Shown here: positions 21,439 to 48,537 of the stretch, in pieces
Layout: each line of letters begins with the position of its first letter
How positions within the stretch are numbered: position 1 is the stretch's first letter
The notes under the pieces: model-generated
Told to the model about the DNA's origin: nothing
Databases searched by the model: none
Seen by the model: the letters and a program-made list of their open reading frames with translations, nothing else
Translations under genes and position numbers: made by a program
From: Alphaproteobacteria bacterium
GTDB taxonomy: Bacteria; Pseudomonadota; Alphaproteobacteria; JACZXZ01
NCBI GenBank assembly: GCA_035604475.1
Contig: DATNIJ010000048.1
Span: 1 to 50,327 of the forward strand
Reading direction: 5' to 3'
Length of the DNA stretch: 50,327 bases

Positions 21439-21514
<76 letters not shown>

Positions 21515-23363: not shown

Positions 23364-23392
23364 TTGACCAAATCTGTACGGCGCTGTACATT
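23364..23392 (+). promoter_or_regulatory. Candidate sigma70-type promoter with embedded near-palindromic operator for the phd-vapC operon
   Basis: TTGACC (23364-23369), a 17-nt spacer and TACATT (23387-23392). The spacer and -10 contain TGTACGGCGCTGTACA (14/16 palindromic). GGAGG follows, then the ATG at 23410. Confidence 0.4.
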
Positions 23393-23409
23393 TCTGCTGG
23401 AGGTGCCGA

Positions 23410-23664: not shown

Positions 23665-24077
23665 AGCTCCAAGATCTGCCGGATCAGGCCTTGCTGCTGG
23701 TCGACTCGGCGCCGATTATTTACGTCCTCGAGGCTCATCCGAAATTCGGGCCGCGTTTCAAGCCGCTCTTTGAGGCGCATGCGGTCGGGCGTCTGCGCTT
23801 TGCCGTTACGACCCTGGCGATCGCCGAGGTATTGACCGGTCCGTTGCGAGCGGCAAACGAGGCGCTTGCGCGGCGTTACCGTGCAGTCCTCGAGTCATGG
23901 CAGCCCATTCCACTCGACGTTGACATTGCGGAAAGTGCCGCGCGATTACGAGCTTTGCTTCGTCTCGGGCTGGCGGACGCTGTTCAGGCCGCGAGCGCTC
24001 TCGCGATTAATGCAGCCGCTCTCGTGACGCATGATCGCGATTTCTCACGCGTTCATTCGCTGCGCGTAATTTGCTGA
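23652..24077 (+). CDS. vapC: Type II toxin, VapC (PIN domain ribonuclease)
   Basis: 141 aa. LLVDSAPIIYVLE supplies the first acidic residue, AEVL the second and ALVTHDRDF the distal Asp. Size and pairing with Phd are typical. Confidence 0.8.
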   Translation: MEPLKLQDLPDQALLLVDSAPIIYVLEAHPKFGPRFKPLFEAHAVGRLRFAVTTLAIAEVLTGPLRAANEALARRYRAVLESWQPIPLDVDIAESAARLRALLRLGLADAVQAASALAINAAALVTHDRDFSRVHSLRVIC

Positions 24078-28464: not shown

Positions 28465-29030
28465 GTCGCATCACCTCATGCCAAGCAATGTGCTGAACTC
28501 GACGCACATAACTCAAAAATGGCGCATCCTCAAGTGGTAAACACGGCTTTCGCATAGCGGCGGCACCGACCGGACGAGCAAGAATCGGACGCCCCGGGAG
28601 GGCCGGCAATTGGCGGCGACTTCCAAGCAAATTGCCGCCCGTTGCTCCCGGCGCATCCGGAACAAACGTCCGCGTCGCCGCATGGATGCCGAATATACCT
28701 GGTTGACGCCGTCGCGATATCGCAGACGAGGATTGAGGTCGACACCTCGGGCACAGACCGACGCCGTGAAGCGCGCGTCCGCTCGCTTCCTGGAAGGCGC
28801 ACGGCGAGGGCGGCGACCCGGCTGCCGGTGAAGGGGGAGACATGGGTTATCGGGTCCTGCAGCCCTCCCTGCCACGCCCGCCGAAAGCCGCGCTTGACTT
28901 CCAACCCAAAACCGCGCGGCCCACTCTAAGCTTTTGCAAGCGCGCGAGCTTCAGCTATAGTATTTGCGCATGCCCTGCGACACCGCTGCCCGAGCGGCCC
29001 GGCGTCGCGAAGCACCGAGATGGGGGGGAT

Positions 29031-30389
29031 ATGTCTCGCGCCGCTTTTCCTGCCGCGCTTTTGCGATGGACCATCGCAGGAGCGCTGTTGCTGCTCGCAG
29101 CCGCCGCCGGAACACCGCTCTACGCGCAGACCGCCGCTCCGCAAGCTCCAAGCACCCATCTCGGCGTGGCGACCTGCTCCGGCAGCACCTGCCACGGCTC
29201 GATGGAGCCGTGGAAGGGCTCGCACGTGCAGCAGAACGAGTACATCATCTGGACCAAAAAGGACAAGCACGCCCGGGCCTATTCCGTGCTTTCCAACGAG
29301 CGCTCGAAGCGCATCGTCGCCAACCTCGGTCTCAAGGCGGCGACCGAGGAGCCGGTCTGCCTCGAGTGCCACGCCGACTTCGCACCCCAGGACCAGCGCG
29401 GCACCCGCTTCCAGATCAGCGACGGGGTCGGCTGCGAGGCCTGCCATGGCGCCGCCTCGCGCTGGCTCGGCATCCACGTCTCCGGCATCAGCACCCATCA
29501 GAACAACATCAACCTCGGCATGTATCCGACCGACCAGCCGGTGGCGCGCGCGCAGCTTTGTCTCTCCTGCCACTTCGGCGACGGGCACCGTTTCGTCACC
29601 CACCGCATGATGGGGGCCGGCCATCCGCGCATCAACTTCATGGAGCTCGACACCTTTACGGCGATCGAGCCGGCACATTTCGTGGTCAACGACGCCTATC
29701 GCTCGCGCAAGAGCGCGCCGAGCGGGGTGCAGGTCTGGGCGATCGGCCAGGCGATCGCGCTCGGCAAGGTGCTCGATGCCTTGATGGATCCGAAGCGCAA
29801 TACCGACGGACTCTTCCCCGAGCTGGTGCTGTTCGATTGCTTCGCTTGCCACCATTCGCTCAACGAGCTCAAGTGGCAGCCCCGTGCGGCGACCGGCCTC
29901 GGCCCGGGCGTGCCGCGGATTAACGACGCCAACCTGGTGATGCTGCGCCTCATCGCCGAGCGCATAGCGCCCGGCACTGGCAAGGAGCTCACCGAGCGAG
30001 GGCGCGCCCTCCATGAGGCGGCGACGCGCAGCCGGGAGGCCATGGCCGAGGCCGCGCGCGCGCTCAAGACGGTCGTCAGCGGCATGGTGCCGATGCTGGA
30101 GCAGCACCAGTTCAGCCGCGAGGACTTGAGCGCGCTTCTGGCTACGATCGCCGAAGGGGGCCTGCGCGGCGACGAGTTCGATTATGCCGCGGCGGAGCAG
30201 TCGACCATGGCGCTGAGCGCGATCATCCACACCATGAAGAACATTGGTGCTGTCGACGAGAAGCAGTTTCAGGCGCTGGACACCGCACTCAACCGCGTCT
30301 ACGAGGCGGTCAACAAGGCGGACGGTTACAAGATGCAAGCCTTCCTTGCCGCCTTGGGCGAGTTCAAGCACGCGATCCCCAGCGGCTGA
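29031..30389 (+). CDS. Secreted multihaem c-type cytochrome (cytochrome c554-like N-terminal region plus helical C-terminal domain)
   Basis: The start is taken at MSRAAFPAALLRWTIAGALLLLAAAAGTPLYA (signal peptide), giving 452 aa. There are four CxxCH motifs (CLECH, CEACH, CLSCH, CFACH) and one CX4CH (CSGSTCH, followed by the W..S.H context seen after the first haem of c554-like proteins). Confidence 0.8.
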   Translation: MSRAAFPAALLRWTIAGALLLLAAAAGTPLYAQTAAPQAPSTHLGVATCSGSTCHGSMEPWKGSHVQQNEYIIWTKKDKHARAYSVLSNERSKRIVANLGLKAATEEPVCLECHADFAPQDQRGTRFQISDGVGCEACHGAASRWLGIHVSGISTHQNNINLGMYPTDQPVARAQLCLSCHFGDGHRFVTHRMMGAGHPRINFMELDTFTAIEPAHFVVNDAYRSRKSAPSGVQVWAIGQAIALGKVLDALMDPKRNTDGLFPELVLFDCFACHHSLNELKWQPRAATGLGPGVPRINDANLVMLRLIAERIAPGTGKELTERGRALHEAATRSREAMAEAARALKTVVSGMVPMLEQHQFSREDLSALLATIAEGGLRGDEFDYAAAEQSTMALSAIIHTMKNIGAVDEKQFQALDTALNRVYEAVNKADGYKMQAFLAALGEFKHAIPSG

Positions 30390-30416: not shown

Positions 30417-32195
30417 TCAAAGCTTGAACGAAGTCTGCGCCAGCTGCTCGCTCGCGTAACGATAACCGATCTCGACAGCGCGATCGAAGGCCTTCCAGTC
30501 GAGGATGTCGACCGCCTCGAGCGGCGGGACGAGGAGGAGGTCGGCCTGCCGCCGCGCCAGCTCGTTCTGGATGTCCGAGCTGATGGTGCCGGCGCGCACG
30601 AGAACGGGAACGATCCAAGGCACGCCCCGGCGGCCCTTGAAGAGAAGCCGCCAGAGCGGCACGTTCTCCAGATCTTCCACGGCCGAGGTGAGCCCCCGCG
30701 TGGCGCCCACATTGACGCCGATCACCGGGCCGCGGTGCTGCGCGCGCATGAGATCGATGGGGAGATTGTCCATGACGCCGCCGTCGACCAGCACCTCGCC
30801 GCGCTCGATCACCGGCGGCAGCAGCCCCGGGATGGCGACGCTCGCGCGCAACGCCAGCCACAGCGGCCCGTCGCGATGCACGACCGAGCGCGCCGTCGTG
30901 AGATTGGAGGAAATGCAGAAATAAGGCCGCCACAGATCCTCGACCTGCACCTCGCCGAATTGCGCGCGCAGGAGGCGCGACACCTTACGCCCGCGGGTAA
31001 ATGCTATGAACGGCAGTGCCAAATCGGAAAGCGGATTGGTGTCCACGAAGGAGTGCCGCACCCGCGCACTCAGCTCCGCATCGGTCCATTCGAGGGCAAC
31101 GCCGGCCGCGATGATGGCGCCCATGCTGCTGCCGGCGACAAGATCGAATGCTATTCCGGCTTCGCGCAAGGCGCGGACGACGCCGATGTGGGCGAGTCCA
31201 CGCGCGCCGCCGCCGGAGAGCACGAGCCCCACGGCGCGGCCGAGCAGAAAGCGGGCCAAGCGCGCGGTGTCGCCTGCATTGCCCGGCCGTACGCGGCAAT
31301 GGAACTTTGCTGGGATACGGCTGAGCCAAGCGGAGGATGGTGCGGGCAAGGGACCGTCGGCGGACTCGAGCAGCACGAGATCGAGCGGCCGGTGCGCCAC
31401 CTCGGCGGGAGCGAGCTCGTGGAGCAGGACCGGCGGCAAGGGCTGATCCGGGCGGCAAACCAGGAGGACTCGGTCGGCTTGGCGCAGGCAAAGCCGCGTC
31501 CAGGGTGTAATTTCCGGCTCGGCGCAATAGACGCAGAAATCGCTCGCCAACTCGCGTGCTGTGAACCATTCGCTCTCGTGAAGGCCGTCGGCGGGACCCA
31601 GGATGCACACGCGTGGCGCGTGCGAGGCGAGGGCCGCGGCAAGGGCGCGGCCGAAGCTCTCGAGCGGCAGGTGGGGGGCAAGCGGCAGGAGAGCGAAATT
31701 CCGCGAGGCGCCGCCGAGCGCATCATGGCGCAGGCGCTGCGAGAGGCGCATGGCAAGATCGCGCGCGAGCGGCAACGCCACCCGCGGGTAGCGTTCGAGA
31801 ATACGCTCGAAATCTCGCCGCGTGATCTCCAGCACCTCGCTGTCACGCAGCGCCATCACCGTGGCCGAGCGGGTCTCGCCGGAGATGAGCGCCATCTCGC
31901 CGACGGTCTCGCCCACGCCGGCTTCCGCCACCACCACCGGCTCGCCGCTCGGCCCTTCGGCGAGGACGACGAGCCGCCCCGAGACCACGAGATAGAGCGC
32001 CTCGCCTTGCTCGCCCTGGCGGAAGAGAACGCTCCCTCCCGGCAGGCTGAACCAACTCATCTCCTCGAAAAATGCGGCGGCCACGGCGGCCGGCAGGCCG
32101 CGGAAAAGCGGCGCCCCGGCAAAGCAGTCGTGAACGCCTGCGATCCGCGAAGCGAAGAACGGTCCGCTTCTCTCTTCCTCCCCAGCGCCTGCCAT
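30417..32195 (-). CDS. Cyclic-nucleotide-binding domain / patatin-like phospholipase fusion protein (NTE/RssA-like)
   Basis: 592 aa. The N-terminal cNMP domain reads GEALYLVVSGRL...VGEMALISGETRSATVMALRDSEVL. The patatin core has LVLSGGGARGLAHIGV (oxyanion), AGSSMGA (GxSxG) and VDGGVMDNLP (catalytic Asp). Confidence 0.88.
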   Translation of the reverse strand: MAGAGEEERSGPFFASRIAGVHDCFAGAPLFRGLPAAVAAAFFEEMSWFSLPGGSVLFRQGEQGEALYLVVSGRLVVLAEGPSGEPVVVAEAGVGETVGEMALISGETRSATVMALRDSEVLEITRRDFERILERYPRVALPLARDLAMRLSQRLRHDALGGASRNFALLPLAPHLPLESFGRALAAALASHAPRVCILGPADGLHESEWFTARELASDFCVYCAEPEITPWTRLCLRQADRVLLVCRPDQPLPPVLLHELAPAEVAHRPLDLVLLESADGPLPAPSSAWLSRIPAKFHCRVRPGNAGDTARLARFLLGRAVGLVLSGGGARGLAHIGVVRALREAGIAFDLVAGSSMGAIIAAGVALEWTDAELSARVRHSFVDTNPLSDLALPFIAFTRGRKVSRLLRAQFGEVQVEDLWRPYFCISSNLTTARSVVHRDGPLWLALRASVAIPGLLPPVIERGEVLVDGGVMDNLPIDLMRAQHRGPVIGVNVGATRGLTSAVEDLENVPLWRLLFKGRRGVPWIVPVLVRAGTISSDIQNELARRQADLLLVPPLEAVDILDWKAFDRAVEIGYRYASEQLAQTSFKL

Positions 32196-32347: not shown

Positions 32348-35300
32348 CTACTGCGGCGGCGCCGCAGCGCGCTGCCGCCGACCGGAAAGCCGCGCCGGCG
32401 AGGCCGACGGCTCTGCCGCCGGCAATGCCCGCAGCAGGTCTTGCATGCGCACCTCGTCCGTGACGTACCAGGGCATGCCTTTGACATCGAGATAAAGCTC
32501 CTGCATCTCGGGAAGCGTGAAGGGACGCGAGCCGAGACGCCCGAAGACCGCGATCTGATTGCCGCTCTCATCGACGCCGCGGTCGCGCTCGAGGCCCTTG
32601 GAGAGCGAGAGCGCCGGCCACTCGGTCTTGCGCCAGGCGATGAGCTCGGGCTTGGGCTCGGGGCTGAAGCCGTAGAGATTGGGCTGGCTGTCGGGCGAGG
32701 TGAGCTGGATCACCTTGAGGCCGTTCTTCCCGTCCGCCACATAGGCGAAGAGCGAGGCGTTGGTGGTGCCGACCACCACGTCATTGGCGTCGTTCATCTT
32801 GCCGTCGGCGTTGAAGATCCGCGCGAGGTGCGGATGCTCCGGGCGCTCGACGTCGATGATGGCGAGCCCGTCGCGGCCGTCCGCGACATAGGCATAGGTA
32901 CGCGCGACATAGAAGCGCCGCGCGTCCGCGAGCGGGACTGCGGCGCCCGCAACCTGCTGGGGCGCCTCGGGATGGGTCACGTCGATCACCTTGAGCCCCT
33001 CGCGGTCGAGGGCGAAGAGATAGCGGAACTGAAGCGCCGTCGCGCGCACGCCGTCGAGCTTCACCACCGCGTCGAGCTTGGGATGCAGCGGGTCGCTCAT
33101 GTCGAGCACAACGATGCCGGCGTCGGCGGCGATGTAGAAATGGTCGCCGCCGATAGTGATGTGGCGGGCCCCCTTGAGCACGCCGCCCTCGTTCCAGGTG
33201 AGCGCCCGATTGAGGAATCTGTCGCGCGGCTCGCGGGAGGAAAGCGGGTTGACGTCGGTGAGGATCAGGCCCTCCTCCGCATCCGTGATATAGGCGTAAT
33301 TGTAGATCGGGTGCATGGGCTGCTCTTGATTGTCCTCGCGCATGAGCTTGCCCTGATTGCGCGCCGGATCGATCGACTGGTTGGTCGGCAGCGCCACGCA
33401 GGTGGCGTTGCGCGAGCCGATGTGCATGTCCTGGCCGAGCGGCGAGAAGGGTGCTGTGATGATGCGCTCGGAGACGTCCTTGTTGGCGACGCTCGCCACG
33501 TCGTAGGCGCGCATGCCGTCATCGCCCTCGGCGACATAGACAAATTCGCCGCGCTCCTGGATGCAGCCGCTGCGCCCGCCGGAATGGCTGTGCGCCTCCT
33601 CGAGCTCGCGGCCGCGCGCGAGATGCGCGTTGTACCAGTCGGGATAGGCGTATTTGTGGAGGTAACTGCCGATCACGGCTTGGGGCTCGTCCCACTCCGT
33701 CACCCGCACCGCCTCAATGCCGCCGTCCTCGCCGACCCAGCTGTTGTAGCCGATGAAGTTGACGAAGTTGGTCCCGAGCAACAGGAGCTGCGCCATGATC
33801 GCGTTGTTGTCGTTGGCCTCTGAGAGGTGGCAGTCGGTGCAGGTCTTGGTCTCGGTGGTGCGCTCGGTGTGCGGAAAGTGGGGTGCGAAGGCCTGGCTGC
33901 TGTAGCCGCTTGCGGCGATCGGCGGCTGCTGGATGTAGATGCGCTCGCGATTGATGTTGGTCGAGCTCAGCACCAGCGCCGAGGACGAGCGCACCGGCGC
34001 TATGATATTGCCCTCGACCGTGCTGTGCTTGCCGAGCTGGAACATGTCGTCGCGCGCAACTTGCGGATTGTAGGAGGCGAAGTTGCGGGTGATGCCGCCT
34101 TCGTAATGGTGCCGCTCGGTGCGCCAGTTGGCCTGGATCGGCAGGTGGCAGCCGCTGCAGCTCGTGGTCCACGAGGTATGGCAGCTGTAGCAGGCCATCT
34201 CGCTGCTCTTGTGCGCCAGGTCGGCCTCCGGCACGCCCGGGCCCCATTTGAAGGTGGTGCCCTTCGCCATCAGCTTGGCGCGCGCGGCGCGGGGGTTGAA
34301 GCGGGGATTGTTGGGATCGACGGTGTCCTTGACGAGGCTCACCTCCCACTCGAGCTTGGGATCGACGGCGGAGTGCTGGATGAGCTTGTCGCCGCGCCAC
34401 TCGAAGCGCCGCTGGCCGTCCTGGTTGCGCAGGAGGGCGAGGTCGTAGCCGCCTGGCTGCGCCGCGGGCCCGCTGGTCATGAGGGTGGGATAGCGCTCGA
34501 TAGTGCCGTGGCAATCGACGCAGCGGATCTCGATCGCCGACATCACCTCGCCGTAGATGTAGCCGTTGCCGTGGGCGTCCTGGCTGAAGTGGCAGTCGAC
34601 GCACTGCATGCCCTTGTCCACGTGGATCGAGCTCAGATGGACCGCCTTCTTGGCCCACGCCGGATCCTCGCGCGGCACGATCTGGCCCTTGGCGTCGAGC
34701 AAATCGCCCTTGCGGTCCTGCTTGAAGACGGCGCGGAAGTTCCAGCCGTGACCGTGATAGTCGGCGAACTGCGTCATCTTGAGCTTGGGGTTGAGCTCGC
34801 TCACCTGGTCGAGGAAGGCGGGGTCGCCCCACTTGCCGCGGATCGCCGCCTCCTCGGGATTGCGGTCGAGGATCGCCCGCGCCTCGGCGTCGCTCGGATA
34901 CTTCTGCTTCGCCGGCCACATGAAGGGTGCGTCCGCCTCGTAGTCCCACATGGTGTAGCCCAGCATGGTGTTGAGGAACATGTTGGGCTGGTGCATATGG
35001 CAGATCATGCATTGGCTGGTCGGGATCGCGTTCGTGAAGGAGTGGTGGATCGGATGCCCCGGCTCGTGCTTGGGGACGGTGGGGTCGGTGCTGGCGCTCT
35101 CGCCGTTGTGGCCGTAGACGGCATAGGGGCCAGAATGGCGAGGATCGCGGTCGTTGGCATAGACGACGTGGCAGGCGCCGCAGCCCGAGGTGCGGTAGTC
35201 GCCCGGATTGTCGTTGGTGCCGAGGAACCAGGTATAGGGATCATTGAGGCGCGTCTTGGCGAGGTTGAGCACCGGCACCGCGATCCTGAGCCCGGTGCCG

Positions 35301-36169
35301 AGCCCGCGGTTCGACTGGCGGATGTCCGGCTTGCCGGGCATCTCGAGCACCTGCAGCTTGCCCTCCGCATCGGGATTGCCGATGTCGGGGAACGCCGAGC
35401 CGATGCTGATGCCGCCGCGCTCGAAGACGCGGAAGATGTCGGCGGGCGGCACCACCTCCCAGGCCGGCAGCGGCAGGAGCTTCGGCAGGATGCCGTGGCT
35501 CTTCATGAGCGCGTCGGGATCCTTCGGGTTCTTGGCGATCGCCGCGGTGCCGTCCCGCGTATAGGCCTCGCCGAGAATGTAGTTCTTGTAGGGCAGGATG
35601 CCGTTGTTGTAGGAGGCCCCGCCCCAGAACATGGCGGCATTCGCCATCAGGCTGCGCTCGGCCGCCTCGATGATCTCGAGATGACAGGCGCCGCAGGCCT
35701 CGCGCGCGACGCGCAGGTCGCTCGGGTTGACGAAGCGGATGAACTCGGGCGCCTCGCGGTTGAGCAGCGTGTAGCTCTCCGCGGGCTTGCGGCTCTTGGG
35801 ATAGCCCCAGCTCTTGGGATAGCGCGGCAGCACGTGGGCGCGATTCATTGCCTCATCGTAGGCGGGCGTCCCGGACGCCCCCTGCCCCGGCCCCATCACT
35901 TGCGCATTGCCGCCGTGGCAGTCGGTGCAGCCGAGCGTCACTATGTCGCTCTCGTGCATGGTCAGGCTGTCGGTCGTGGTGTGGCAGGAGCGGCAGCCGG
36001 CACTCTTCGCCTTGGCCTCCTCCGGGAGCTGCGCCCGCGGCGCCGGCGGAGCCGGCGCGTAATGCACCTCGCGCGGGCTCTCCTCCTCGGGCATGGCCTC
36101 GAGGAAGCCGGCGCCCCCGAGGAGGAGCCAGGCCGAAGCCAGCAGCAGGACGGACGAGAGGCGGCGCAT
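32348..36169 (-). CDS. Secreted decahaem c-type cytochrome fused to a C-terminal LVIVD-repeat (beta-propeller-type) domain
   Basis: 1273 aa with signal peptide MRRLSSVLLLASAWLLLGGAGFLEA. Ten CxxCH motifs: CRSCH, CTDCH, CGACH, CGACH, CMICH, CVDCH, CVDCH, CYSCH, CSGCH, CTDCH. Six LVIVD-like repeats follow: FVYVAEGDDGMRAYDV, YAYITDAEEGLILTDV, FYIAADAGIVVLDM, YLFALDREGLKVIDV, YAYVADGRDGLAIIDV, FAYVADGKNGLKVIQL. Confidence 0.85.
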   Translation of the reverse strand: MRRLSSVLLLASAWLLLGGAGFLEAMPEEESPREVHYAPAPPAPRAQLPEEAKAKSAGCRSCHTTTDSLTMHESDIVTLGCTDCHGGNAQVMGPGQGASGTPAYDEAMNRAHVLPRYPKSWGYPKSRKPAESYTLLNREAPEFIRFVNPSDLRVAREACGACHLEIIEAAERSLMANAAMFWGGASYNNGILPYKNYILGEAYTRDGTAAIAKNPKDPDALMKSHGILPKLLPLPAWEVVPPADIFRVFERGGISIGSAFPDIGNPDAEGKLQVLEMPGKPDIRQSNRGLGTGLRIAVPVLNLAKTRLNDPYTWFLGTNDNPGDYRTSGCGACHVVYANDRDPRHSGPYAVYGHNGESASTDPTVPKHEPGHPIHHSFTNAIPTSQCMICHMHQPNMFLNTMLGYTMWDYEADAPFMWPAKQKYPSDAEARAILDRNPEEAAIRGKWGDPAFLDQVSELNPKLKMTQFADYHGHGWNFRAVFKQDRKGDLLDAKGQIVPREDPAWAKKAVHLSSIHVDKGMQCVDCHFSQDAHGNGYIYGEVMSAIEIRCVDCHGTIERYPTLMTSGPAAQPGGYDLALLRNQDGQRRFEWRGDKLIQHSAVDPKLEWEVSLVKDTVDPNNPRFNPRAARAKLMAKGTTFKWGPGVPEADLAHKSSEMACYSCHTSWTTSCSGCHLPIQANWRTERHHYEGGITRNFASYNPQVARDDMFQLGKHSTVEGNIIAPVRSSSALVLSSTNINRERIYIQQPPIAASGYSSQAFAPHFPHTERTTETKTCTDCHLSEANDNNAIMAQLLLLGTNFVNFIGYNSWVGEDGGIEAVRVTEWDEPQAVIGSYLHKYAYPDWYNAHLARGRELEEAHSHSGGRSGCIQERGEFVYVAEGDDGMRAYDVASVANKDVSERIITAPFSPLGQDMHIGSRNATCVALPTNQSIDPARNQGKLMREDNQEQPMHPIYNYAYITDAEEGLILTDVNPLSSREPRDRFLNRALTWNEGGVLKGARHITIGGDHFYIAADAGIVVLDMSDPLHPKLDAVVKLDGVRATALQFRYLFALDREGLKVIDVTHPEAPQQVAGAAVPLADARRFYVARTYAYVADGRDGLAIIDVERPEHPHLARIFNADGKMNDANDVVVGTTNASLFAYVADGKNGLKVIQLTSPDSQPNLYGFSPEPKPELIAWRKTEWPALSLSKGLERDRGVDESGNQIAVFGRLGSRPFTLPEMQELYLDVKGMPWYVTDEVRMQDLLRALPAAEPSASPARLSGRRQRAAAPPQ

Positions 36170-36179: not shown

Positions 36180-37970
36180 TCAGTAGGTCAAGACGATATC
36201 GGCGAGCACGGAATAGAGGTAGCGCTGCTTGTCCTGGGACACATAGAGGTCCTTGAAGCCCTGCTGCGGAATGAGGATGCCACCGGACAGCCGCAGCACG
36301 ACGTTCTGCGTGAAGAACGGCCGGTAGGTCAATGCCGCCGAGAGATCGAAACCGATGCGGTCCTGGATCTCGCCCTGCTGGCGCAGCACCTCGAGCACGG
36401 AGGTGTTCTGGAAGCGCAGGTAATTGGCGTTGGTCGAGAGCTTGAGCTCGGGGAGGATGTCGGCATCCGAGCCGACGCCGAAAAGCAGCAGGCCCGGGTT
36501 GATGAAGTTCGATTGCCCCTGGTCCTCCGAGGTGCGCAGCGAGGGCAGAATCGCGTTGCGGCCGGAGAGCACGACGCCGCCGCCGCCGATGAAGGGAATG
36601 GCCTGGCGGATCCAGTAGCTGGTATCGGCGCCGGCGAACTGCGGGTTCTCCATGATGGCGTCGAAGCCCGTCTCGGTCCTGCCGTAGGGATTGCGGTCGC
36701 CGCTGGCGTAGAGGCCCGAGAGCCGCACGCGCAGCCAGTCGAAGTCCACCGAGGGCTCGATCGCCGCGAACTCGGCGCGGATGTCGGCGGGCTTGCCGCT
36801 GAAGGTGTTGTGACTGTCGTAGCCGTTCGCGTAGTAGGCCGAGCTCATCAGGTTGAAGCGGCCGATATGGCCGTTCATGTTCCAGCCGGCGTAGGTCACG
36901 TCGTAATTATGCCCGCGCTCGTCGCCGATGGGGGCCGGGCGGACGAGGAAGTCGTTGTCGTCGTAGAAGCGCTCGCCGCGCTCGCGGTTGCGGTTGTAAA
37001 CGACGGTGATCTGCTGGGTCAGGCCGGGCCAGGGCAGGTCCTGGCGGTAGAGGTTGGTGACGAGGACCCAATCCTTGCGCCGCGCCTGGGTCACGTCGTT
37101 GAGCCCGCTGTCGGTGTCCTTCTCCAGGCGCTGGAACATGGCAAGGTTGTACTGCCAGAGATTGTTGTCGCGGTTGCCGAAAAGCCGCGCGCCGAGCTGG
37201 TCGTCCTGGAAGAGGAAGCCGCGGAAATCGGTGGAGAAGGGCTGAATGCCGACGCGCAGCGAATCGAAATCGTAGCGCTCCGAGACGTCGCGCAGGTGGT
37301 AGTCGATGAACGCTTCCTGCAAGCCGACGAAGGTCTTCTGACGCGTGTCGCCCTTGCGCGGGTCGGCATTGACGATGCCGACCTCGTCGACCGAAAGGTA
37401 ATTGACGTTGAAGACCGGCGTCACCCGGAACTCGAACTCGGGCGGCTTGAAGGCGGTGTCGCCCTTGGTGAAGGAGAAGCTCGAAAGCAGATTCTCGTTG
37501 ATGAAGGCTTGGCCGATGCGGCCGTAGGTGTCGATCTCGCGCGAGTTCTTGGTCGACTGCACGCCGACCGGCGTCGGCACCGTGCGCGGCTCGAACACCG
37601 TATCGTTGACGAAGGACGTGCTGAAGAACCAATCGTTGCCGAAGAGCGGCCGGTCGCCCTTGAAGGTGTTCTGGCTGTAAGGATTCCACCAGTGCTCGTT
37701 AACCCCGATCTCCTCGATGAGGCGCCAGCGGTCCGGCACGGGGATGAACTCGCGAGGATAATCGCGCGTGGGCGGCGCCACCGCAGGGGGGCCGGTCTCG
37801 GGCGCCGGCGTCTCCTCGACCGGCGGCGGCTGGCCGGGCAGCCGCCGCCCGTCCTGGGCGATGTCGAGGTCCTCGGCGAGGGAAGGCTCGATTTGATATC
37901 CGGCCGCCCGCGCCGGGTGCGACAGCGAAAGCGCGAGCCCGACTGCCAGTAGCATGGACCACGGGCGCAC
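36180..37970 (-). CDS. Putative outer-membrane beta-barrel protein (porin-like)
   Basis: 596 aa with signal peptide MRPWSMLLAVGLALSLSHPARA. A Pro-rich N-terminal segment is followed by a long region of alternating hydrophobic/aromatic dipeptide pattern. The C-terminus ...ADIVLTY carries an OMP-type terminal aromatic. It is 10 nt from the downstream cytochrome gene and 9 nt from the upstream gene. GTG start at 37970, or ATG at 37955. Confidence 0.65.
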   Translation of the reverse strand: MRPWSMLLAVGLALSLSHPARAAGYQIEPSLAEDLDIAQDGRRLPGQPPPVEETPAPETGPPAVAPPTRDYPREFIPVPDRWRLIEEIGVNEHWWNPYSQNTFKGDRPLFGNDWFFSTSFVNDTVFEPRTVPTPVGVQSTKNSREIDTYGRIGQAFINENLLSSFSFTKGDTAFKPPEFEFRVTPVFNVNYLSVDEVGIVNADPRKGDTRQKTFVGLQEAFIDYHLRDVSERYDFDSLRVGIQPFSTDFRGFLFQDDQLGARLFGNRDNNLWQYNLAMFQRLEKDTDSGLNDVTQARRKDWVLVTNLYRQDLPWPGLTQQITVVYNRNRERGERFYDDNDFLVRPAPIGDERGHNYDVTYAGWNMNGHIGRFNLMSSAYYANGYDSHNTFSGKPADIRAEFAAIEPSVDFDWLRVRLSGLYASGDRNPYGRTETGFDAIMENPQFAGADTSYWIRQAIPFIGGGGVVLSGRNAILPSLRTSEDQGQSNFINPGLLLFGVGSDADILPELKLSTNANYLRFQNTSVLEVLRQQGEIQDRIGFDLSAALTYRPFFTQNVVLRLSGGILIPQQGFKDLYVSQDKQRYLYSVLADIVLTY

Positions 37971-37979: not shown

Positions 37980-39884
37980 CTACTTCCCGGAGCAGGCGTT
38001 TTGGTTCTGCTGTCCGAGGAAGGGGTCCACCGGACAGTTGACGTAGCGCAGTGCCACACCCATCGGTGACAGGTTGTCGGCACGGATACCGACGGGGGCG
38101 TTGCCGATGCCCGTGTTGAGCACGCCGCCCGCGTTGTTGAGGCCGAGGAAGCTCACCAGATCGTCCTGGTCGACGCCGTCGCCCGAGGTGCCGATGCCGC
38201 CCACGAGCACGGAACCGCGGTAGATCGGCACGCTGCCGGGGAAAATCTGGATGCCGTTGGGCAGCCGCGCCACCCCGGTGCAGGCCACTACCGTATCGGG
38301 GTTGGTACCGAAGATGAAGCCCACGTGCTGCACGATGTTGGCGGCGACGAGATCGAGCTGGAGCCCGTCCGTGAATATGCTCCACTGGTTGATCGGATTG
38401 CTGAAGGGTCCGTTGGGCGTGCCGTCGATGCCGTCGGGGTAGTATGGGCGCGAGAGGTTGCCGTTGGCCCGATCGGTGAAGGCGTAGGCGCCGGTGAGCA
38501 TGGCCTGCCCGACGAAGGAACGCGCGGCACCCACGTAGCCGCCCATCCCGGCCGCGGCGAGATCGTTGCCGGCATAGGCGCCGGAGAAGAAGGCGGCGGT
38601 GCGCGCCTTCTGCAGCGCCACGTCGATGCCGAACACCGGCGCGTCGGGCGCGCGCACCGCGCCGAGGATGCCGCCGTTGGTGTCGACTACGAAACTCGAT
38701 ACCTGCGCGGCGCTGTTGAGCGGCTGGCGGATCTGCGAGCGCGCCTGGAGGCCGACCGCAAGGGCCTGGGCGAGGATCTGCTGCACCTCAGCTGCGGTGA
38801 GCGCAAGCGCCCCGTCGGTGCCGGGGCGGGGCGCGAAGCGGTTGACGTTGCTGGCATCGACTAGAACGTAGGCCTGCGCATTGCCGAAGAGGCCGGAGCT
38901 GTCCGGCGCAATGCCCGAGGCCGGCGTGCCGTAGACCGTGCCGTTGAGGGGGACAAGTCCCGCGGTATAGTAGCCGTTCACACTGACGAGCGCGCCGGCG
39001 GTGCCGTTGATCGCGGCGAAGGAAGGTGCGGCGCCCGGATTGGCGGCGAGTGCGGTGGTGTCGACGTCGGTGTAGGGCAGCAGGAGCCCGTTGATGGTGA
39101 TCTTGTTGGCCCGGATGCCGGCCGGGGCATCGAAGCCGACGGTGCCGGCGAGCGCTATCAGCTCGTCGGGATCGCTTTCGGTGACGAAGACGGTGAGGTC
39201 GTCGCTGTAGACACCGCGCGAGGTCACGCCGATGCCGCCTACGAGCACGCCGCCCGAATAGAGCGGTATGCCACCCGGATCCGCCGAGAGCCCGAGCGGC
39301 GAGCGCTGCGGCCCGATCATCCCGCTCGTGGGAAAGCGCGAAGAAAGGTCGGAGCAGGGCAGCTGGCTGAACTGCACGCCGAAGAGCGGGCCGGAGGGCT
39401 GGTCCTTCGTCCCGGGCGCGAAGTGCTCCTGCACGATGTAATTGGCCGTGCGCGTGGTGAAGGCGTTGCCGTTGGAGGAGAGGTAGGCGCCGGTGATCGC
39501 CTTGGCGATCGCGGCGGCGGTGTCCGGCACCACCGCATTCTCCAAGCCGCCCACCACGCCCCGGCCCGAGGTGATCGTCACGTCGAGCGGCGCGCCGTTC
39601 ATGCGGAAGACGCCGAGCACATTGCCGACCCGGTCCACCACCGCAATCGTCGCGGGTTGATGGCGCGCCGTGGCCTCGCCCACGGCCTGGGCGATGATTT
39701 GGGCTACGGCGTCGCTGGTGAGTTGCTGGGCCTCAGCCCGCACCACCCCGAACGATAAGACAGAGAGCGCTGCCGCCGCACATGCCGCGGCCGCCCGGAG
39801 AGCATGGCCTCGGCGGCGGCGGCCGACCGCTTCCCTCGCTGCCCCTTCCGCGCCACGACGAGGTCGCGATTCCGGCGCCATCAT
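37980..39884 (-). CDS. Secreted protein with two GlcG/HbpS-like (DUF336, haem-binding/degrading family) domains
   Basis: 634 aa. GGGGGGAG Shine-Dalgarno precedes ATGATG. The Arg-rich leader reads RRRRGHALRAAAACAAAALSVLSFGVVRAEA. Domain 1: AQIIAQAVGEATARHQPATIAVVDRVGNVLGVFRMNGAPL...AIAKAITGAYL. Domain 2: VQQILAQALAVGLQAR...SSFVVDTNGGILGAVRAPDAPVFGIDVALQKARTAAFF. Confidence 0.65.
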   Translation of the reverse strand: MMAPESRPRRGAEGAAREAVGRRRRGHALRAAAACAAAALSVLSFGVVRAEAQQLTSDAVAQIIAQAVGEATARHQPATIAVVDRVGNVLGVFRMNGAPLDVTITSGRGVVGGLENAVVPDTAAAIAKAITGAYLSSNGNAFTTRTANYIVQEHFAPGTKDQPSGPLFGVQFSQLPCSDLSSRFPTSGMIGPQRSPLGLSADPGGIPLYSGGVLVGGIGVTSRGVYSDDLTVFVTESDPDELIALAGTVGFDAPAGIRANKITINGLLLPYTDVDTTALAANPGAAPSFAAINGTAGALVSVNGYYTAGLVPLNGTVYGTPASGIAPDSSGLFGNAQAYVLVDASNVNRFAPRPGTDGALALTAAEVQQILAQALAVGLQARSQIRQPLNSAAQVSSFVVDTNGGILGAVRAPDAPVFGIDVALQKARTAAFFSGAYAGNDLAAAGMGGYVGAARSFVGQAMLTGAYAFTDRANGNLSRPYYPDGIDGTPNGPFSNPINQWSIFTDGLQLDLVAANIVQHVGFIFGTNPDTVVACTGVARLPNGIQIFPGSVPIYRGSVLVGGIGTSGDGVDQDDLVSFLGLNNAGGVLNTGIGNAPVGIRADNLSPMGVALRYVNCPVDPFLGQQNQNACSGK

Positions 39885-41707: not shown

Positions 41708-42544
41708 TCAGAAATAAAAGAAGACCAAGACGATATGGGCGGTGAGGGCGGCGAGCAGCGCGAAGGCGAGCGGCACATGGACGTAGAGCCAGATCTCCAT
41801 CAGCGCCTTGTAGCGGAGGTCGAGCCGGACCTGCGCAACCAGCGCCTGCTTGCGCTGGAGCTCGCGGCGCAGGCGCATGACCGGCACGTCGAGCTTGGCG
41901 GGCACGGTGGCCGCGAGCTCTTCGATCCGGGCCAGCGCCCGCGTCGTGCCGCAGTTGCGATCGACGCCGCTCAACTGCCGGCGCAGCGAGCCGCCGATGC
42001 GCGTCTCCTGGTGGCTGATCCGCACCGCGGCGGCAAAATCGTCCGGCAGGTTGAGGCACGCCGCGCGCGATTCGCGGTCGATGTCGGCGAGCTTGATGAG
42101 CATGCTGCGCAAGGTCTCGCCGCGGCGGTTGTCGGTCATGAGCCGGGGATAGCGCGCATAGACGTAGATGCCGAAGAGGCCGCTCCCGATCACCATCATC
42201 ATGAGGGCATAGGCCAGCGTGTGGATGTTCCAATGGAAGCGGAAGCCGGTGTGCAGGGTGGCAATGACGGCGAGCGCCAGGCCGAAGTAGACGTGGCCGG
42301 AAAGCCAGGCCTCGAGCCGCCACTCGCCGGGGCCGTAGCGGCGCTTGCGCACGCCGAACCACATCAGCCAGACGACGAGAAGTGCTGCCACCGTGCCGAG
42401 CGTGTAGCCGAGCCAGGTGCTGCCGCTCGGCACGCCGCGCGGCGAGTCGACGGCGTACCAGACGAGTGCCGCCCCGGTCATCGCCGTGGCGACTTTGGGA
42501 TAGAGTAGGTTGCGGTAGACGAGGAAGGATTCGTGGAGGCTCAT
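41708..42544 (-). CDS. Integral membrane protein, about 5 TM helices with conserved-looking intramembrane histidines (possible b-haem carrier)
   Basis: The start is taken at MSLHESFLVY, where the ATG overlaps the upstream stop (ATGA at 42541-42544). Histidines sit in predicted helices (GHVYFGLALAVIATLH, NIHTLAYALMMMVIG, WLYVHVPLAFALLAALTAHIV). A soluble helical insert of about 100 aa lies between TM4 and TM5. Confidence 0.7.
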   Translation of the reverse strand: MSLHESFLVYRNLLYPKVATAMTGAALVWYAVDSPRGVPSGSTWLGYTLGTVAALLVVWLMWFGVRKRRYGPGEWRLEAWLSGHVYFGLALAVIATLHTGFRFHWNIHTLAYALMMMVIGSGLFGIYVYARYPRLMTDNRRGETLRSMLIKLADIDRESRAACLNLPDDFAAAVRISHQETRIGGSLRRQLSGVDRNCGTTRALARIEELAATVPAKLDVPVMRLRRELQRKQALVAQVRLDLRYKALMEIWLYVHVPLAFALLAALTAHIVLVFFYF

Positions 42545-45128: not shown

Positions 45129-45899
45129 CTATTTGAACAGCTTTTCGCCCGACGCCGTGGCGCCGTCCACCACGCGCTGGTTCGACAATTCTTCGATCAG
45201 CGCCTTGGCTTGCACGGTGCAGCCGACCGTTGCCATCCAGCTCAGCACTTCGGCATCCGTCACGACTCTTGCGGGCATGATGCGCAGGGTCAGCTCGCGC
45301 GTCATTTCCGGCGGGGCGAAGGTGACGACATAGCCGGCGCCGTCCGCGGCCTTGACGCGCTTCGGCCAGGGCATGACGATCTGGTCCGCGGGCCACTCGA
45401 AGCTGCTGTGCTCCTTGGTGCCCTTGTGGGTGATGGTGATCGAGACGGTCTGCTTTGGCGCGGGCCGCCACAGCTCGAGCTCGGTCGCGGGCTTGATGCA
45501 CTTCGTCCCCGAGGCGGCGACGTTGATCGACCAGACCGTGGGCGTTTTGGCGGCGGCGCCCAAGCCCCGCGTCAAGCCGAGGGTGGTCAAGCCGCTCGAG
45601 CCCTCGGTCGTGACGATGGCGGCCATCCGCGTGAGCAGGCTGGGGCCGTCCGCCCGATCTTCCCCGCCCGGGATGCCGTTGTAGGGCCCCCTCACGGTAA
45701 CCACCTGGCCGCTCTCGTCCATCAGCACGACGTAGTTGTCGGCCTTGACAGCGAACTTTTGGCTGCCGTCCACGGTGTCGCCCTTCTGCAGCCCGGTGTC
45801 GGGCGAGCTCTCGAGCACGAGGAGCTTCGCCGCACTCGCCGGCACGGCCGAGAGCAGGAGTGCGGCGAGCACAAGCGCAAATCGTGACCAGCGCATCAT
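45129..45899 (-). CDS. Secreted hypothetical protein translationally coupled to the CHASE2 cyclase
   Basis: The start is taken at MMRWSRFALVLAALLLSAVPASA (signal peptide), giving 256 aa. The start overlaps the cyclase stop (ATGATG/TGA at 45896-45899). No motif was recognised with confidence; the N-terminal half is possibly a FecR-like beta-sandwich. Confidence 0.7.
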   Translation of the reverse strand: MMRWSRFALVLAALLLSAVPASAAKLLVLESSPDTGLQKGDTVDGSQKFAVKADNYVVLMDESGQVVTVRGPYNGIPGGEDRADGPSLLTRMAAIVTTEGSSGLTTLGLTRGLGAAAKTPTVWSINVAASGTKCIKPATELELWRPAPKQTVSITITHKGTKEHSSFEWPADQIVMPWPKRVKAADGAGYVVTFAPPEMTRELTLRIMPARVVTDAEVLSWMATVGCTVQAKALIEELSNQRVVDGATASGEKLFK

Positions 45900-47944
45900 T
45901 TGTCCTCCAACATGATTGTGATGCCAGTCTCCCCCCGCCGCAAGCGTTCCAGATGGAACGCCGCGAGCGGGTCCTCGGGCTGGCGTCGGTGGAGCGCCTC
46001 GAAGGCGCCCAAGGCTTGAGGGGAGCCTTGCCGCAGCAGCTCGAAGGCCGCGCAATAGTCGGCAAGGCCCGGAGACTCGTCCGCGGCAGGCGCGAAGACC
46101 GCGACGCTGTGCGCTTTGCCGCGTAGCACCACGTCGCCGACCGGCCGCAAGGGAATGTCGCCCGCCTCGGCCACCACCGCCTCGCTCGCGGCGATATCGG
46201 TATTGAAGTACTTGTTCGCACCCTCGAGCCGCGCCACGGTATTCACCGCGTCGCCGTGCGCCATGTATTCGAGCCGGGCGGCGCCGCCGAAATTGCCGAC
46301 CGTGGCGAGGCCGCGGTGGACGCCTATTCGAGTGCGCCCGAAATCGAGCCCTTCCGCCGCCGCCTTTCGGCGCTCTTCCTTGGCGAAGCGGTTCATTGCG
46401 AGTGCCGAGCGGAGCGCGTGCGCCGCCTGCTCGGGGTCATCGAGGGGCGCTCCCCAGAAGGCGAGGACCGCATCGCCGATGAAGCCGGCGACGGTGCCCT
46501 TGTGATCATAGATGATGCTCGTCATGCCGCTGAGATAGCGATTGAGCGCCGGCACCAGGGCCTTGGGATCCGCACTCTCGCACAGCGTGGTGAAGCCGGA
46601 GATGTCGGTATAGACGAAGCTCATCATGCGCCGCTCGCCGCCGAGCTTCATGTCCTCGGGGTGGAAGAGCAGGTGATCGACGACCTCCGAGGGCACGTAG
46701 CGGGTCAGGACCGAACGGATGAAGCGCCGCTCCGCGGCGTGGAGCTGGCGCGCGTGGGCAATGCCGATCGTCATGGCGATGAGGAAACCGGCGGCCGGCG
46801 TCACGAGCGGGAAGATCGGCCCCGGCGTCACCACCGGCGCCGTGGCGCCGCCATAGTGAAAGATCGCCCCGGCCGCGGCCAAGAGCAGCATGATCGTGGC
46901 GAACCCGACGGTCACGCGCAGCGACCACGCCATCTCCCGGCGGCCGATGAGGAAGCCGAAGGCGGCCAGGCCGGCAATGAGCAAATCCGCGGCCCACGAG
47001 GGCACCGCCTCGACCTCGCGCCCGTCGAGAAGCTGGGCCAGGCCTTGCGCCTGAAGATAGACCCCCGGCGTGGCAGATTGGCCAGTCAGCGGATCGCTGG
47101 CAAAGGGCGTGCGGTGGAGATCGACATTGAGAAGATTGGCGCCGATGAGCACGACGCGATGGGCAAGCGTGCTGCTTTGCACCCGCCAGATCTGCGGCAT
47201 CTCGGGAAAGAGCAGGTGCGCCGGAAAGCGAATGAAGGGCTGCTGGTCCTTGAAGGGATGGCCGTAATAGGCGAGCGGCAGCGTGAGGCCGGGGGGCGCC
47301 GCGCCCCCGGCGCTCTTGCTGAGGAGGAGATCGAAGGTCTCCCGGACCGTGCCCGCCGGCACGCGCAGGACGAGCTGCCGCACCACCCCGTCGCGATCCT
47401 CGCGCATCACGCTCAAGCCGGGCACGACGAGCGGATTGTCGATGCGCTTGATGAAGTTCTCGAGATACGTCTCCTGCCAGCGCTCGATGGCGCCCGGCGC
47501 ATTGACCGCATCGATCCAGCCCAGCACCACGGGCACGCGCACGTGGTGCAGTGCGGCCAGGAGGGCTGCATCCTTCTCGGGCTCGCTCGGCTCGTCGAAG
47601 AGCACGTCGATACCGATCGCCGCCGGTTCGGCGGAGGCCACGGTGTCGACGAGCTTGGCGAGAAGGCCGCGGTCCACCGGCGAGCGGCGGCCGATCTTGG
47701 CCGCCGTCGCCTCGTTGATCTCGACCACCGCCACCTTGGGATGCGGGGGTGCCGACGGCGCCAAGAGCGCCAGACGTAGATCGCCGAGCCAGGTCTCGAG
47801 CAGGCTGAAGGGTGGCACCCGCGCGGCGAAGAGGAGTGCTGCGAGCAGCGTCGCGAGACTTGCCGAGGAGCGCAGCCAGATCTTCCATGGGCGCGGCGAC
47901 TCTTCCAAAAGCGTAGTGCCACGCCCATCTCGGGACCGCATCAA
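45896..47944 (-). CDS. CHASE2 sensor domain - TM - class III nucleotidyl cyclase
   Basis: 682 aa. N-terminal TM, then a periplasmic CHASE2-like region (VAVVEINEAT...IGIDVLFDEP...VVLG), three TM helices, then the cyclase domain (MSFVYTDISGFTTL, GFIGDAVLAFWGAP, RIGVHRGLATVGNFG, GDAVNTVARLE). Confidence 0.88.
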   Translation of the reverse strand: MMRSRDGRGTTLLEESPRPWKIWLRSSASLATLLAALLFAARVPPFSLLETWLGDLRLALLAPSAPPHPKVAVVEINEATAAKIGRRSPVDRGLLAKLVDTVASAEPAAIGIDVLFDEPSEPEKDAALLAALHHVRVPVVLGWIDAVNAPGAIERWQETYLENFIKRIDNPLVVPGLSVMREDRDGVVRQLVLRVPAGTVRETFDLLLSKSAGGAAPPGLTLPLAYYGHPFKDQQPFIRFPAHLLFPEMPQIWRVQSSTLAHRVVLIGANLLNVDLHRTPFASDPLTGQSATPGVYLQAQGLAQLLDGREVEAVPSWAADLLIAGLAAFGFLIGRREMAWSLRVTVGFATIMLLLAAAGAIFHYGGATAPVVTPGPIFPLVTPAAGFLIAMTIGIAHARQLHAAERRFIRSVLTRYVPSEVVDHLLFHPEDMKLGGERRMMSFVYTDISGFTTLCESADPKALVPALNRYLSGMTSIIYDHKGTVAGFIGDAVLAFWGAPLDDPEQAAHALRSALAMNRFAKEERRKAAAEGLDFGRTRIGVHRGLATVGNFGGAARLEYMAHGDAVNTVARLEGANKYFNTDIAASEAVVAEAGDIPLRPVGDVVLRGKAHSVAVFAPAADESPGLADYCAAFELLRQGSPQALGAFEALHRRQPEDPLAAFHLERLRRGETGITIMLEDK

Positions 47945-48430: not shown

Positions 48431-48537
48431 CTCCGCCGGCAATCCGGCAGTACCGGCCGCGGCTTTCCTCGCGAGGCACCTGTTGCTATTATCGCCGCCA
48501 CGTCCGTCCGCGACAGCATAGAGCAAGGTGTAACATA

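Follow-up and report, generated by a model that had tools for sequence, protein, structure and literature searches.

The window analysed here covers positions 1 to 50,327 of contig DATNIJ010000048.1 from an alphaproteobacterial genome (Alphaproteobacteria bacterium, assembly GCA_035604475.1), 50,327 nucleotides (nt) in full, and our subject is a gene that encodes a ten-haem c-type cytochrome fused to a C-terminal beta-propeller of LVIVD repeats. This fusion gene is the last of six on the same strand, which run in the order flavoprotein, cytochrome b, FHA-transmembrane-decahaem protein, HbpS-like protein, outer-membrane barrel and fusion protein, with a 4-nt overlap followed by gaps of 21, 119, 9 and 10 nt (Table 1). 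The same gene order is common to Alpha-, Beta- and Gammaproteobacteria and Acidobacteriota. For brevity the HbpS-like protein, the barrel and the fusion protein are called the head, and the flavoprotein, cytochrome b, FHA-decahaem protein and a c554-like cytochrome the engine.

Table 1. Positions of the fusion gene, its domains and the neighbouring genes in the window.
Feature	Position	Strand	Evidence
c554-like cytochrome, four CxxCH and one CX4CH	28842..30389	+	Pfam Cytochrome_C554 E=3.3e-11, motifs
Fusion gene, 1273-residue decahaem c-type cytochrome with LVIVD beta-propeller	32348..36169	-	Open reading frame, translation, homologues
Beta-propeller domain, residues ~806-1196, ~7 blades	32582..33754	-	AlphaFold2, Foldseek, invariant columns
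Six LVIVD-signature repeats, residues 876-1155	32705..33544	-	Pfam PF08309 and repeat positions
Haem domain, ten CxxCH, residues 59-781	33827..35995	-	Motif positions, Pfam
Sec-type signal peptide, residues 1-25 MRRLSSVLLLASAWLLLGGAGFLEA, without Cys or lipobox	36095..36169	-	Hydrophobic segment at residues 4-22 after basic N-terminus
Outer-membrane beta-barrel, 596 residues, 18 strands, AlgE/OprD-like	36180..37970	-	AlphaFold2, Foldseek
Exported HbpS-like/GlcG protein, 634 residues, three PF03928 stretches	37980..39884	-	Pfam E=2.1e-19
FHA-transmembrane-decahaem protein, 560 residues	40004..41686	-	Pfam FHA and cytochrome c7/c3, ten CxxCH
Membrane cytochrome b, 278 residues, Ni_hydr_CYTB-like (PF01292)	41708..42544	-	Pfam, alignment
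Cytoplasmic flavoprotein, 814 residues	42541..44985	-	Pfam, NCBIfam, sequence, alignment
CHASE2 sensor with class III nucleotide cyclase	45896..47944	-	Pfam

A decahaem cytochrome fused to an LVIVD propeller

The fusion gene has coding-type codon usage, with a GC content at third codon positions (GC3) of 0.91. An initial annotation of the window had placed ten CxxCH motifs in the first 800 or so residues of its product, and this was borne out: all ten fall within residues 59-781, starting at residues 59, 81, 159, 330, 387, 523, 550, 660, 671 and 777. They use 20 of the protein's 22 cysteines, and about 0.01 CxxCH would be expected by chance from its own Cys and His frequencies. A motif scan of the protein found no CxxCK or long-spacer haem motifs, and Pfam matches were obtained to Cytochrom_c3_2 (32.4 bits, cut-off 25) and Cytochrome_C7 (25.5 bits, cut-off 24.8). 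As far as the sequence can tell, the protein is confirmed as a multihaem c-type cytochrome. Its motifs are spread at about one haem per 72 residues with long inserts between them, and these inserts, which hold no haem motif, are conserved to the same degree as the haem segments. Twelve histidines outside the motifs are invariant in the aligned family. Of the export signals that the initial annotation had considered, a Sec-type signal peptide is present, with a predicted cleavage site, and a lipobox is absent, the first cysteine being C59. The N-termini of the 120 homologues listed are likewise mostly Sec-type with no conserved lipobox, and no C-terminal sorting signal was seen in the sequence.

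The C-terminal repeats score well as LVIVD. The match to PF08309 reaches 69.8 bits (cut-off 20.2, E=1.2e-19), and three stretches are significant individually. The initial annotation had counted six repeats of a strict consensus between about 32640 and 33630; the number stands, within slightly tighter limits, whereas the strict consensus does not, being exact only at residues 1092-1106 and degenerate in the others (approximately residues 876-890, 957-972, 1010-1023, 1049-1063 and 1141-1155). The pattern they share is hydrophobic-x-hydrophobic-hydrophobic-A-D/E-x(2-4)-G-hydrophobic-x-hydrophobic-hydrophobic-D, of the FxYVAD...GLxVID type. The expected propeller fold was recovered by AlphaFold2, run on residues 27-1226 with a 49-sequence alignment, at a predicted local distance difference test score (pLDDT) of ~85-95 over residues ~806-1196. 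Each LVIVD repeat supplies strands three and four of a four-strand blade in the model, and a seventh, closing blade is probably made of two N-terminal and two C-terminal strands, as read from strand order rather than coordinates. Foldseek returned only beta-propellers among the top matches for this model, with no specific relative.

Haem c joined to a propeller is a known enzyme architecture, and it should be considered that the propeller might itself be catalytic or bind a cofactor, fed by the ten haems in the style of cytochrome cd1 nitrite reductase or hydrazine synthase, making the protein a self-contained small-molecule enzyme of the periplasm. The cd1 nitrite reductases do occur among the Foldseek matches (E ~1e-6, TM-score 0.18 by query and 0.35-0.44 by target), and the domain is as well conserved as the haem domain (0.77), with many invariant polar residues and two invariant cysteines, Cys869 and Cys924, in the family alignment. 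Those matches are generic, however, and DDB1, WD40 proteins and AztD score equally or better. The invariant columns hold one histidine only and no metal-site-like cluster of His or Cys, and cofactor-biosynthesis genes are not linked to the cluster. We judge a catalytic propeller to be very unlikely.

The fusion is genuine. The initial annotation had named a frameshift or an assembly joint between two genes as the alternative, and neither accounts for a family in which the ten CxxCH are kept and the LVIVD repeats persist down to 42% identity. A search of 5.8 billion proteins, in clusters at 90% identity, gave at least 7,917 significant relatives among 8,000 candidates scored. The 120 homologues listed are full-length at 66-93% identity and either unnamed or called "hypothetical protein", and all but two of them (118) have exactly ten CxxCH; over the protein and genome searches together, full-length homologues span 61-93% identity. 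A second search, with one representative per 50%-identity cluster from ~15 billion proteins, reached the 42% relatives, in which the repeats still score above the Pfam threshold (e.g., P0257, P0252, P0258 and P0246 in our numbering). Two relatives with no LVIVD match, P0255 and P0326, were examined as possible propeller-less forms and proved to be frameshifted gene calls with Arg-rich out-of-frame stretches. By these comparisons the cytochrome-propeller fusion is ancient and conserved.

Scanning one genome per species, we found a relative encoded in at least 595 species genomes of Alpha-, Beta- and Gammaproteobacteria and Acidobacteriota, from soil, freshwater and marine habitats. Cultured carriers include Duganella (such as D. 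guangzhouensis FT80W), Arenicella and Zavarzinia (such as Zavarzinia sp. CC-PAN008), and relatives also lie on Sphingobium megaplasmids, where the PGAP name in S. herbicidovorans MH (WP_037469316.1) is "multiheme c-type cytochrome". Other carriers of the cluster are a Nitrosomonas metagenome-assembled genome (MAG) and MAGs from marine oxygen-minimum and deep waters. None of the subunits of the set has a curated NCBIfam model, and all members of the fusion family that were seen are named only "hypothetical protein" or "multiheme c-type cytochrome". Literature searches returned no report of an LVIVD-cytochrome fusion, and queries combining propeller with decahaem, alginate export with multihaem, HbpS with multihaem, and the carrier genera returned nothing on this family.

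The barrel neighbour and the location of the fusion protein

The 10-nt spacing to the neighbouring barrel gene given in the initial annotation is exact, the TGA of the barrel gene ending at 36180 and the ATG of the fusion gene starting at 36169. The barrel protein has a signal peptide and an aromatic C-terminal residue, and its AlphaFold2 model shows 18 long strands. Its best Foldseek match is AlgE (4e-16), followed by Occ/OprD substrate channels; no MtrB-type porin is found among the 50 Foldseek matches listed. Assuming the usual topology, the periplasmic turns are conserved at 0.74-0.97 vs 0.46-0.65 for most outside loops, and an N-terminal extension on the periplasmic side (residues 70-113) reaches 0.73. 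Two loops depart from this trend, L7 (residues 423-493, 71 residues) at 0.82 and L4 at 0.77, and with this high conservation both resemble the loops that constrict the pore in such channels. From the relation of strand number to radius, an 18-strand barrel would have a lumen of roughly 2 nm, which is too small for an MtrA-like decahaem cytochrome and more so for an 800-residue haem domain.

The initial annotation had placed the fusion gene in the position taken by extracellular or barrel-inserted cytochromes in porin-cytochrome operons. What holds of this is the presence of a true outer-membrane barrel next to the gene, in 73 of 80 genome loci anchored on the fusion gene and compared by tblastn (their flanks end just upstream of the flavoprotein gene); the Mtr-type features do not hold, as the barrel has 18 strands and the cytochrome no lipobox. 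The corresponding reading is that the fusion protein is surface-exposed, the terminal cytochrome of a true porin-cytochrome conduit passing electrons by way of the barrel to insoluble or polymeric acceptors, for example humic matter or Fe(III)/Mn(IV) oxides; the propeller, more speculatively, would bind the solid or fix the protein to the barrel's outer loops. The persistence of the closely spaced barrel gene speaks for it, as do the ~25 haems c of the cluster and the entry of LVIVD in Pfam as a cell-surface repeat, and the unusually conserved loops L7 and L4 could be an external docking site. The related ptd operon, taken up below, has also been read as a putative porin-cytochrome complex (bioRxiv 10.1101/2023.11.21.568154). 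Type II secretion genes (gspK/gspJ) lie ~8 kb downstream of the head in L052 (21830-23490) and L060 (~23170-23625), loci of one gammaproteobacterial lineage; as a general sign of surface export this linkage was rejected, being confined to those two and, weakly, L161.

Several further observations argue against surface exposure. No lipobox is present in the protein or conserved in its family, and the MtrC/MtrF domain PF22113, with its cut-off of 30 bits, is matched at 14.6. By geometry an MtrA-like insert would not fit the AlgE/OprD-like barrel, and the cluster encodes no small cytochrome that could be inserted. Cultured carriers such as Sphingobium, Duganella and Arenicella are aerobes without known metal respiration. 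Surface cytochromes are fast-evolving, and the very high conservation of the fusion protein is atypical of exposed cytochromes. On this evidence we consider a surface location unlikely.

A periplasmic fusion protein is favoured instead. The Sec signal comes with neither lipobox nor sorting signal, here or as a family trait; the barrel is of the substrate-channel type with a conserved periplasmic face; and the fusion protein is extremely conserved, with the lipoprotein of the head being another member, the HbpS-like protein. The homologues of the latter in many Beta- and Gammaproteobacteria and Acidobacteriota carry a lipobox (L-x-x-C) and a Gly/Ser-rich linker (loci L020, L031, L040, L043, L046, L048, L052 and L063-L069 among them), and it follows that the lipid-anchored member of the head in these lineages is not the cytochrome. 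Alphaproteobacterial HbpS-like proteins, including that of the window, have plain signal peptides. A conserved twin-arginine signal was also sought on the HbpS-like protein and none was found, many homologues having lipoprotein signals.

The gene string, its signalling domains and its modules

The engine begins in the cytoplasm. The flavoprotein combines a TrxR/FNR-like FAD-NAD(P)H domain, which lacks the redox CxxC, with two cyclic-nucleotide (cNMP)-binding domains and four CxxCxxCxxxC(P)-type [4Fe-4S] motifs, whose cluster cysteines are all invariant in the alignment. Its gene shares an ATGA start/stop overlap with that of the cytochrome b, in which two pairs of invariant histidines (H84/H98 and H256/H270), with a spacing of 14 residues within each pair, lie on two helices and imply two haems b stacked across the membrane. 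The FHA-decahaem protein is laid out as a cytoplasmic FHA domain, one transmembrane helix (residues 142-160) and a periplasmic decahaem domain. The c554-like cytochrome probably starts near M64, at nt 29031, and with it the whole cluster encodes ~25 haems c.

Beside the barrel, the 80 loci anchored on the fusion gene contain the HbpS-like gene in 67 cases, the FHA-decahaem gene in 59, and the cytochrome b and flavoprotein genes in 57 each, with absences mostly at contig ends. The fusion protein is the most conserved of the set, at 61-72% identity vs 26-65% for the other members. All-against-all clustering of the open reading frames of these loci yielded no further high-frequency family. A second set comprised 80 metagenome loci anchored on the flavoprotein and gave the same gene order again; the fusion gene was found in 23 of them, most of the others being short contigs, and the c554-like gene adjoins the cluster in 24, compared to 40 of the 80 genome loci. 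A secreted protein of ~166 residues with no Pfam match occurs in 16 of the genome loci, lying in L025 (5677-6198) between the FHA-decahaem and HbpS-like genes. In the L081 locus, on the Sphingobium herbicidovorans plasmid pMSHV, genes for two ShlB/FhaC/HecB two-partner-secretion transporters and for a hypothetical protein of 2,092 residues border the cluster (509-8662 and 28122-29801).

Signalling and lipase genes surround the cytochrome cluster in the window. A cNMP-binding patatin-like phospholipase (30417-32195, reverse strand) lies 152 nt downstream of the fusion gene on the same strand, a second patatin at 48151-49665 (forward) and a Ser/Thr kinase with DUF4384 at 26041-28464 (reverse); of 160 related loci, none has the first patatin or the kinase and one has the second patatin, and these three genes are not part of the system. 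Between the CHASE2 cyclase and the flavoprotein lies a 308-residue protein (45129-46055, reverse) with a signal-anchor-like segment and no Pfam or NCBIfam match, whose reading frame overlaps the 3' end of the cyclase gene, and its true start is thus probably further downstream. A tRNA-Phe gene (21439-21514) is followed by a low-GC stretch to 24077 (GC 0.57 vs ~0.67 elsewhere) that holds a 344-residue open reading frame with no Pfam match (22033-23067, reverse) and a Phd/YefM antitoxin and PIN toxin pair (23410-23664 and 23652-24077); the whole of 21439-24077 has the appearance of a small island that entered at the tRNA gene.

Genes with a possible part in signalling recur near the engine. A homologue of the CHASE2 cyclase adjoins the flavoprotein gene in 5 of the 80 metagenome loci; none is seen in the 80 loci anchored on the fusion gene, whose flanks end just upstream of the flavoprotein gene. 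This cyclase could be the source of a cNMP signal. By tblastn a calcineurin-type metallophosphoesterase, possibly a cNMP phosphodiesterase like CpdA, the cAMP phosphodiesterase of the same family, is present in 6 of the 80 flavoprotein-anchored loci. It lies directly 3' of the FHA-decahaem gene in engine-only loci (L124 9839-10687 and L125 15214-16062) and in Sphingobium (L081 18993-19841). Both neighbours are consistent with cyclic-nucleotide control. A protein with PP2C-like phosphatase motifs, recognised by eye, occurs in 8 of the genome loci (e.g., L060 14952-15767) and would fit FHA/phospho-threonine signalling.

Such neighbours, the FHA and two cNMP-binding domains built into redox subunits, and the fact that HbpS proper is a component of a redox-stress sensor, are what would be expected if the system were mainly a sensor, its haem chain reporting the periplasmic redox state through the FHA and cNMP domains with no bulk flux. 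A sensor that needed ~25 haems c and two haems b, besides four Fe-S clusters, FAD and an outer-membrane channel of its own, would, however, be very costly, and the parts are arranged as a complete chain from donor to acceptor; we regard the sensor reading as extremely improbable.

The engine has been described once before. A preprint reports a "ptdABCDEFG" operon from marine Alphaproteobacteria UBA11136 and others, of "completely unknown" function, encoding a pentahaem protein with a beta-sandwich, a porin, an FAD oxidoreductase, a tetrahaem protein, a cNMP-binding 4Fe-4S protein, a ferric-reductase-like membrane protein and a decahaem protein; its transcripts are found in an oxygen-deficient zone, and nitrite oxidisers are among its carriers (bioRxiv 10.1101/2023.11.21.568154). 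No follow-up publications on this preprint were found. Going by the published description, the engine of the window has the same content (cNMP-binding 4Fe-4S protein, cytochrome b, decahaem and tetrahaem proteins), while its head differs: in place of the PtdA pentahaem/beta-sandwich protein and the PtdB porin, neither of which is encoded in the window, stand the HbpS-like protein, the AlgE-like barrel and the decahaem-LVIVD protein, and the preprint mentions neither a propeller nor LVIVD. Three flavoprotein-anchored loci (L100, L121 and L149) join the engine to a pentahaem protein and a secreted protein of ~530-550 residues, as described for PtdA/PtdB. Their flavoprotein is 53-56% identical to that of the window, and they have an FHA-decahaem homologue and a cytochrome b recognised by position and N-terminal sequence. 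BLASTP found no similarity of the PtdA- and PtdB-like proteins of L100 to the fusion protein and barrel, and no locus among the 80 flavoprotein-anchored loci holds both heads. The head is also found without an adjacent engine (L049, L052 and L060) and divergent from it in Sphingobium. The same engine with different heads, and a head without an engine, show the system to be modular. Three long loci (L108, L124 and L125) have the engine alone with no head within ~7-10 kb, and there the head may lie elsewhere or the engine may be self-sufficient. The HbpS/barrel/decahaem-LVIVD head appears undescribed as far as we have found.

Chains of cofactors are reversible in principle, and the ecology of ptd, together with the Nitrosomonas and marine oxygen-minimum and deep-water MAGs that carry our cluster, is compatible with electron flow in the opposite sense. 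The head would then oxidise a donor in the periplasm or outside the cell, such as Fe(II), reduced humics or a reduced S/N compound, and send electrons inward by way of the cytochromes and cytochrome b to the cytoplasm, where the flavoprotein would reduce NAD(P)+ or another cytoplasmic acceptor. Reduction of NAD(P)+ from cytochrome-c-level donors is uphill, though, and the set lacks a subunit for energy coupling; in arrangement the cytochrome b with the four clusters resembles a plain wire, and the cultured carriers are mostly heterotrophs. We attach a very low probability to inward flow.

Electron transfer across the envelope and relation to known systems

The reading we prefer, and to which we give about even chances, is that the fusion protein is a periplasmic terminal electron-transfer or reductase subunit, docked by its propeller under a substrate channel in a two-module, envelope-spanning system. 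In the cytoplasm the flavoprotein would take electrons from NAD(P)H to FAD and on to its four [4Fe-4S] clusters, with the two cNMP-binding domains acting as a gate between the FAD part and the Fe-S part. The dihaem cytochrome b would move them across the inner membrane to the anchored FHA-decahaem protein, which would accept them in the periplasm, and from there they may pass through the soluble c554-like cytochrome to the decahaem-LVIVD protein at the outer membrane. The head of this chain would be the triple HbpS-like protein, of haem-binding type, with the 18-strand channel and the fusion protein, whose ten haems would gather electrons from the engine cytochromes in the periplasm. We envisage the 7-bladed propeller as a platform for docking or ligand binding on the barrel's periplasmic face or N-terminal extension, and the barrel as a channel for a soluble acceptor coming in or a product going out, not a sleeve for a cytochrome. 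The low haem density and the highly conserved, motif-free inserts suggest an enzyme-like body rather than a bare wire.

A number of points weigh against this reading. The 12 invariant non-motif histidines suffice for bis-His ligation of ten haems, making a pure electron wire equally possible, and no catalytic-haem signature is present in the protein, all ten motifs being canonical CxxCH. In the AlphaFold2 model the haem domain has a pLDDT below 50, and its haem packing and the domain interface are thus unreadable; PDB sequence searches with the protein alone, the family profile and the barrel profile gave a single match, ActA at E=0.12, and so no solved relative of the haem domain. Adjacent barrel and cytochrome genes are a hallmark of porin-cytochrome conduits, and Pfam (PF08309) describes LVIVD repeats mainly from cell-surface proteins. 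The outward direction of electron flow is drawn solely from domain logic. No neighbour gene indicates an acceptor, and candidate FNR, CRP and Fur sites upstream of the flavoprotein gene were no commoner in 38 loci than in shuffled controls.

A broader proposal may also be put forward, which we hold to be distinctly unlikely. Aerobic heterotrophs are widely observed to produce extracellular superoxide in an NAD(P)H-dependent manner and to mobilise metals reductively, activities that lack an enzymatic explanation. The seven-gene set might be a signal-gated, NAD(P)H-driven electron exporter of aerobes, an analogue of NADPH oxidase working over two membranes with interchangeable heads. Its switches would be cyclic nucleotides, through the cNMP domains, and phospho-threonine, through the FHA domain; its heads would be PtdA/B or the HbpS-like protein, AlgE-like channel and decahaem-LVIVD protein; and its electrons would go at the cell boundary either to O2, so that superoxide or peroxide is made deliberately, or to Fe(III), Mn(IV) or humics. 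If true, this would supply a molecular basis for both activities in aerobic heterotrophs.

The family is in any case very large and unannotated, comprising more than 7,900 of the 90%-identity clusters scored and encoded in no fewer than 595 species genomes, and its hosts include cultured, tractable aerobes. Multihaem envelope conduits are usually tied to anaerobic metal respiration or iron oxidation, a picture that would be broadened by a conserved chain linked to NAD(P)H, with signalling domains as part of its subunits, in bacteria that are mostly aerobic heterotrophs. For the LVIVD repeat, to which no function has been assigned, the system would be the first defined molecular context, and the sharing of one engine between a PtdA/B and a decahaem-LVIVD head is a natural experiment. 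Should the fusion protein turn out to be merely a periplasmic electron carrier, the result would be a useful family definition and no surprise.

Among known systems, MtrCAB of Shewanella and OmbB-OmaB-OmcB of Geobacter resemble the window in that a decahaem gene adjoins a barrel gene and a multihaem chain is placed to span the envelope. They differ in most particulars: MtrB has 26 strands compared to the 18 of the AlgE-like barrel; the fusion protein has no lipobox, falls below threshold for PF22113, spreads its haems at ~72 residues each with large inserts and carries a fused propeller; and the input looks like an NAD(P)H flavoprotein and cytochrome b, not a quinol dehydrogenase of the CymA/ImcH type. 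In the Geobacter Ext system soluble oxyanions are reduced by periplasmic cytochromes that go together with a channel in the outer membrane, and by analogy the same logic of channel plus periplasmic cytochrome would apply to the head as we favour it. Local similarity exists as well, to ExtM (NF040943) over haems 6-7 (residues 513-563, E=1.2e-16) and to ExtN (NF040967) and ExtO (NF040968) over haems 8-10 (residues 645-782, ~1e-4). These are short modules only, with scores of 60.2 against a cut-off of 800 for ExtM, 21.8 against 200 for ExtO and 21.3 against 200 for ExtN, and the Ext proteins have no propeller.

Propellers have been met before in the company of multihaem cytochromes. NHL propeller proteins occur in putative electron-transfer gene clusters of Desulfovibrio ferrophilus IS5 (PMC5815863), and NHL proteins and one LVIVD protein in such clusters of Tenderiales (bioRxiv 10.1101/2022.05.06.490989); their authors link them by genome position or function to multihaem cytochrome systems, and they have been proposed to stabilise complexes or mediate attachment (PMC5815863; bioRxiv 10.1101/2022.05.06.490989). 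In both cases the propeller is a separate polypeptide, NHL-type in IS5, whereas here it is fused to the decahaem cytochrome across phyla. For the engine, the nearest likeness is to formate dehydrogenase N (FdnH/FdnI), which likewise has a four-cluster ferredoxin-type domain and a dihaem cytochrome b with His pairs 14 apart; the orientation of the engine is reversed, with the Fe-S domain in the cytoplasm. In NADPH oxidase (NOX), a flavin followed by two stacked haems b carries electrons of cytoplasmic NAD(P)H outward, and the engine would resemble it in principle. Neither enzyme has anything that corresponds to the regulatory cNMP and FHA domains or to the 25-haem chain downstream.

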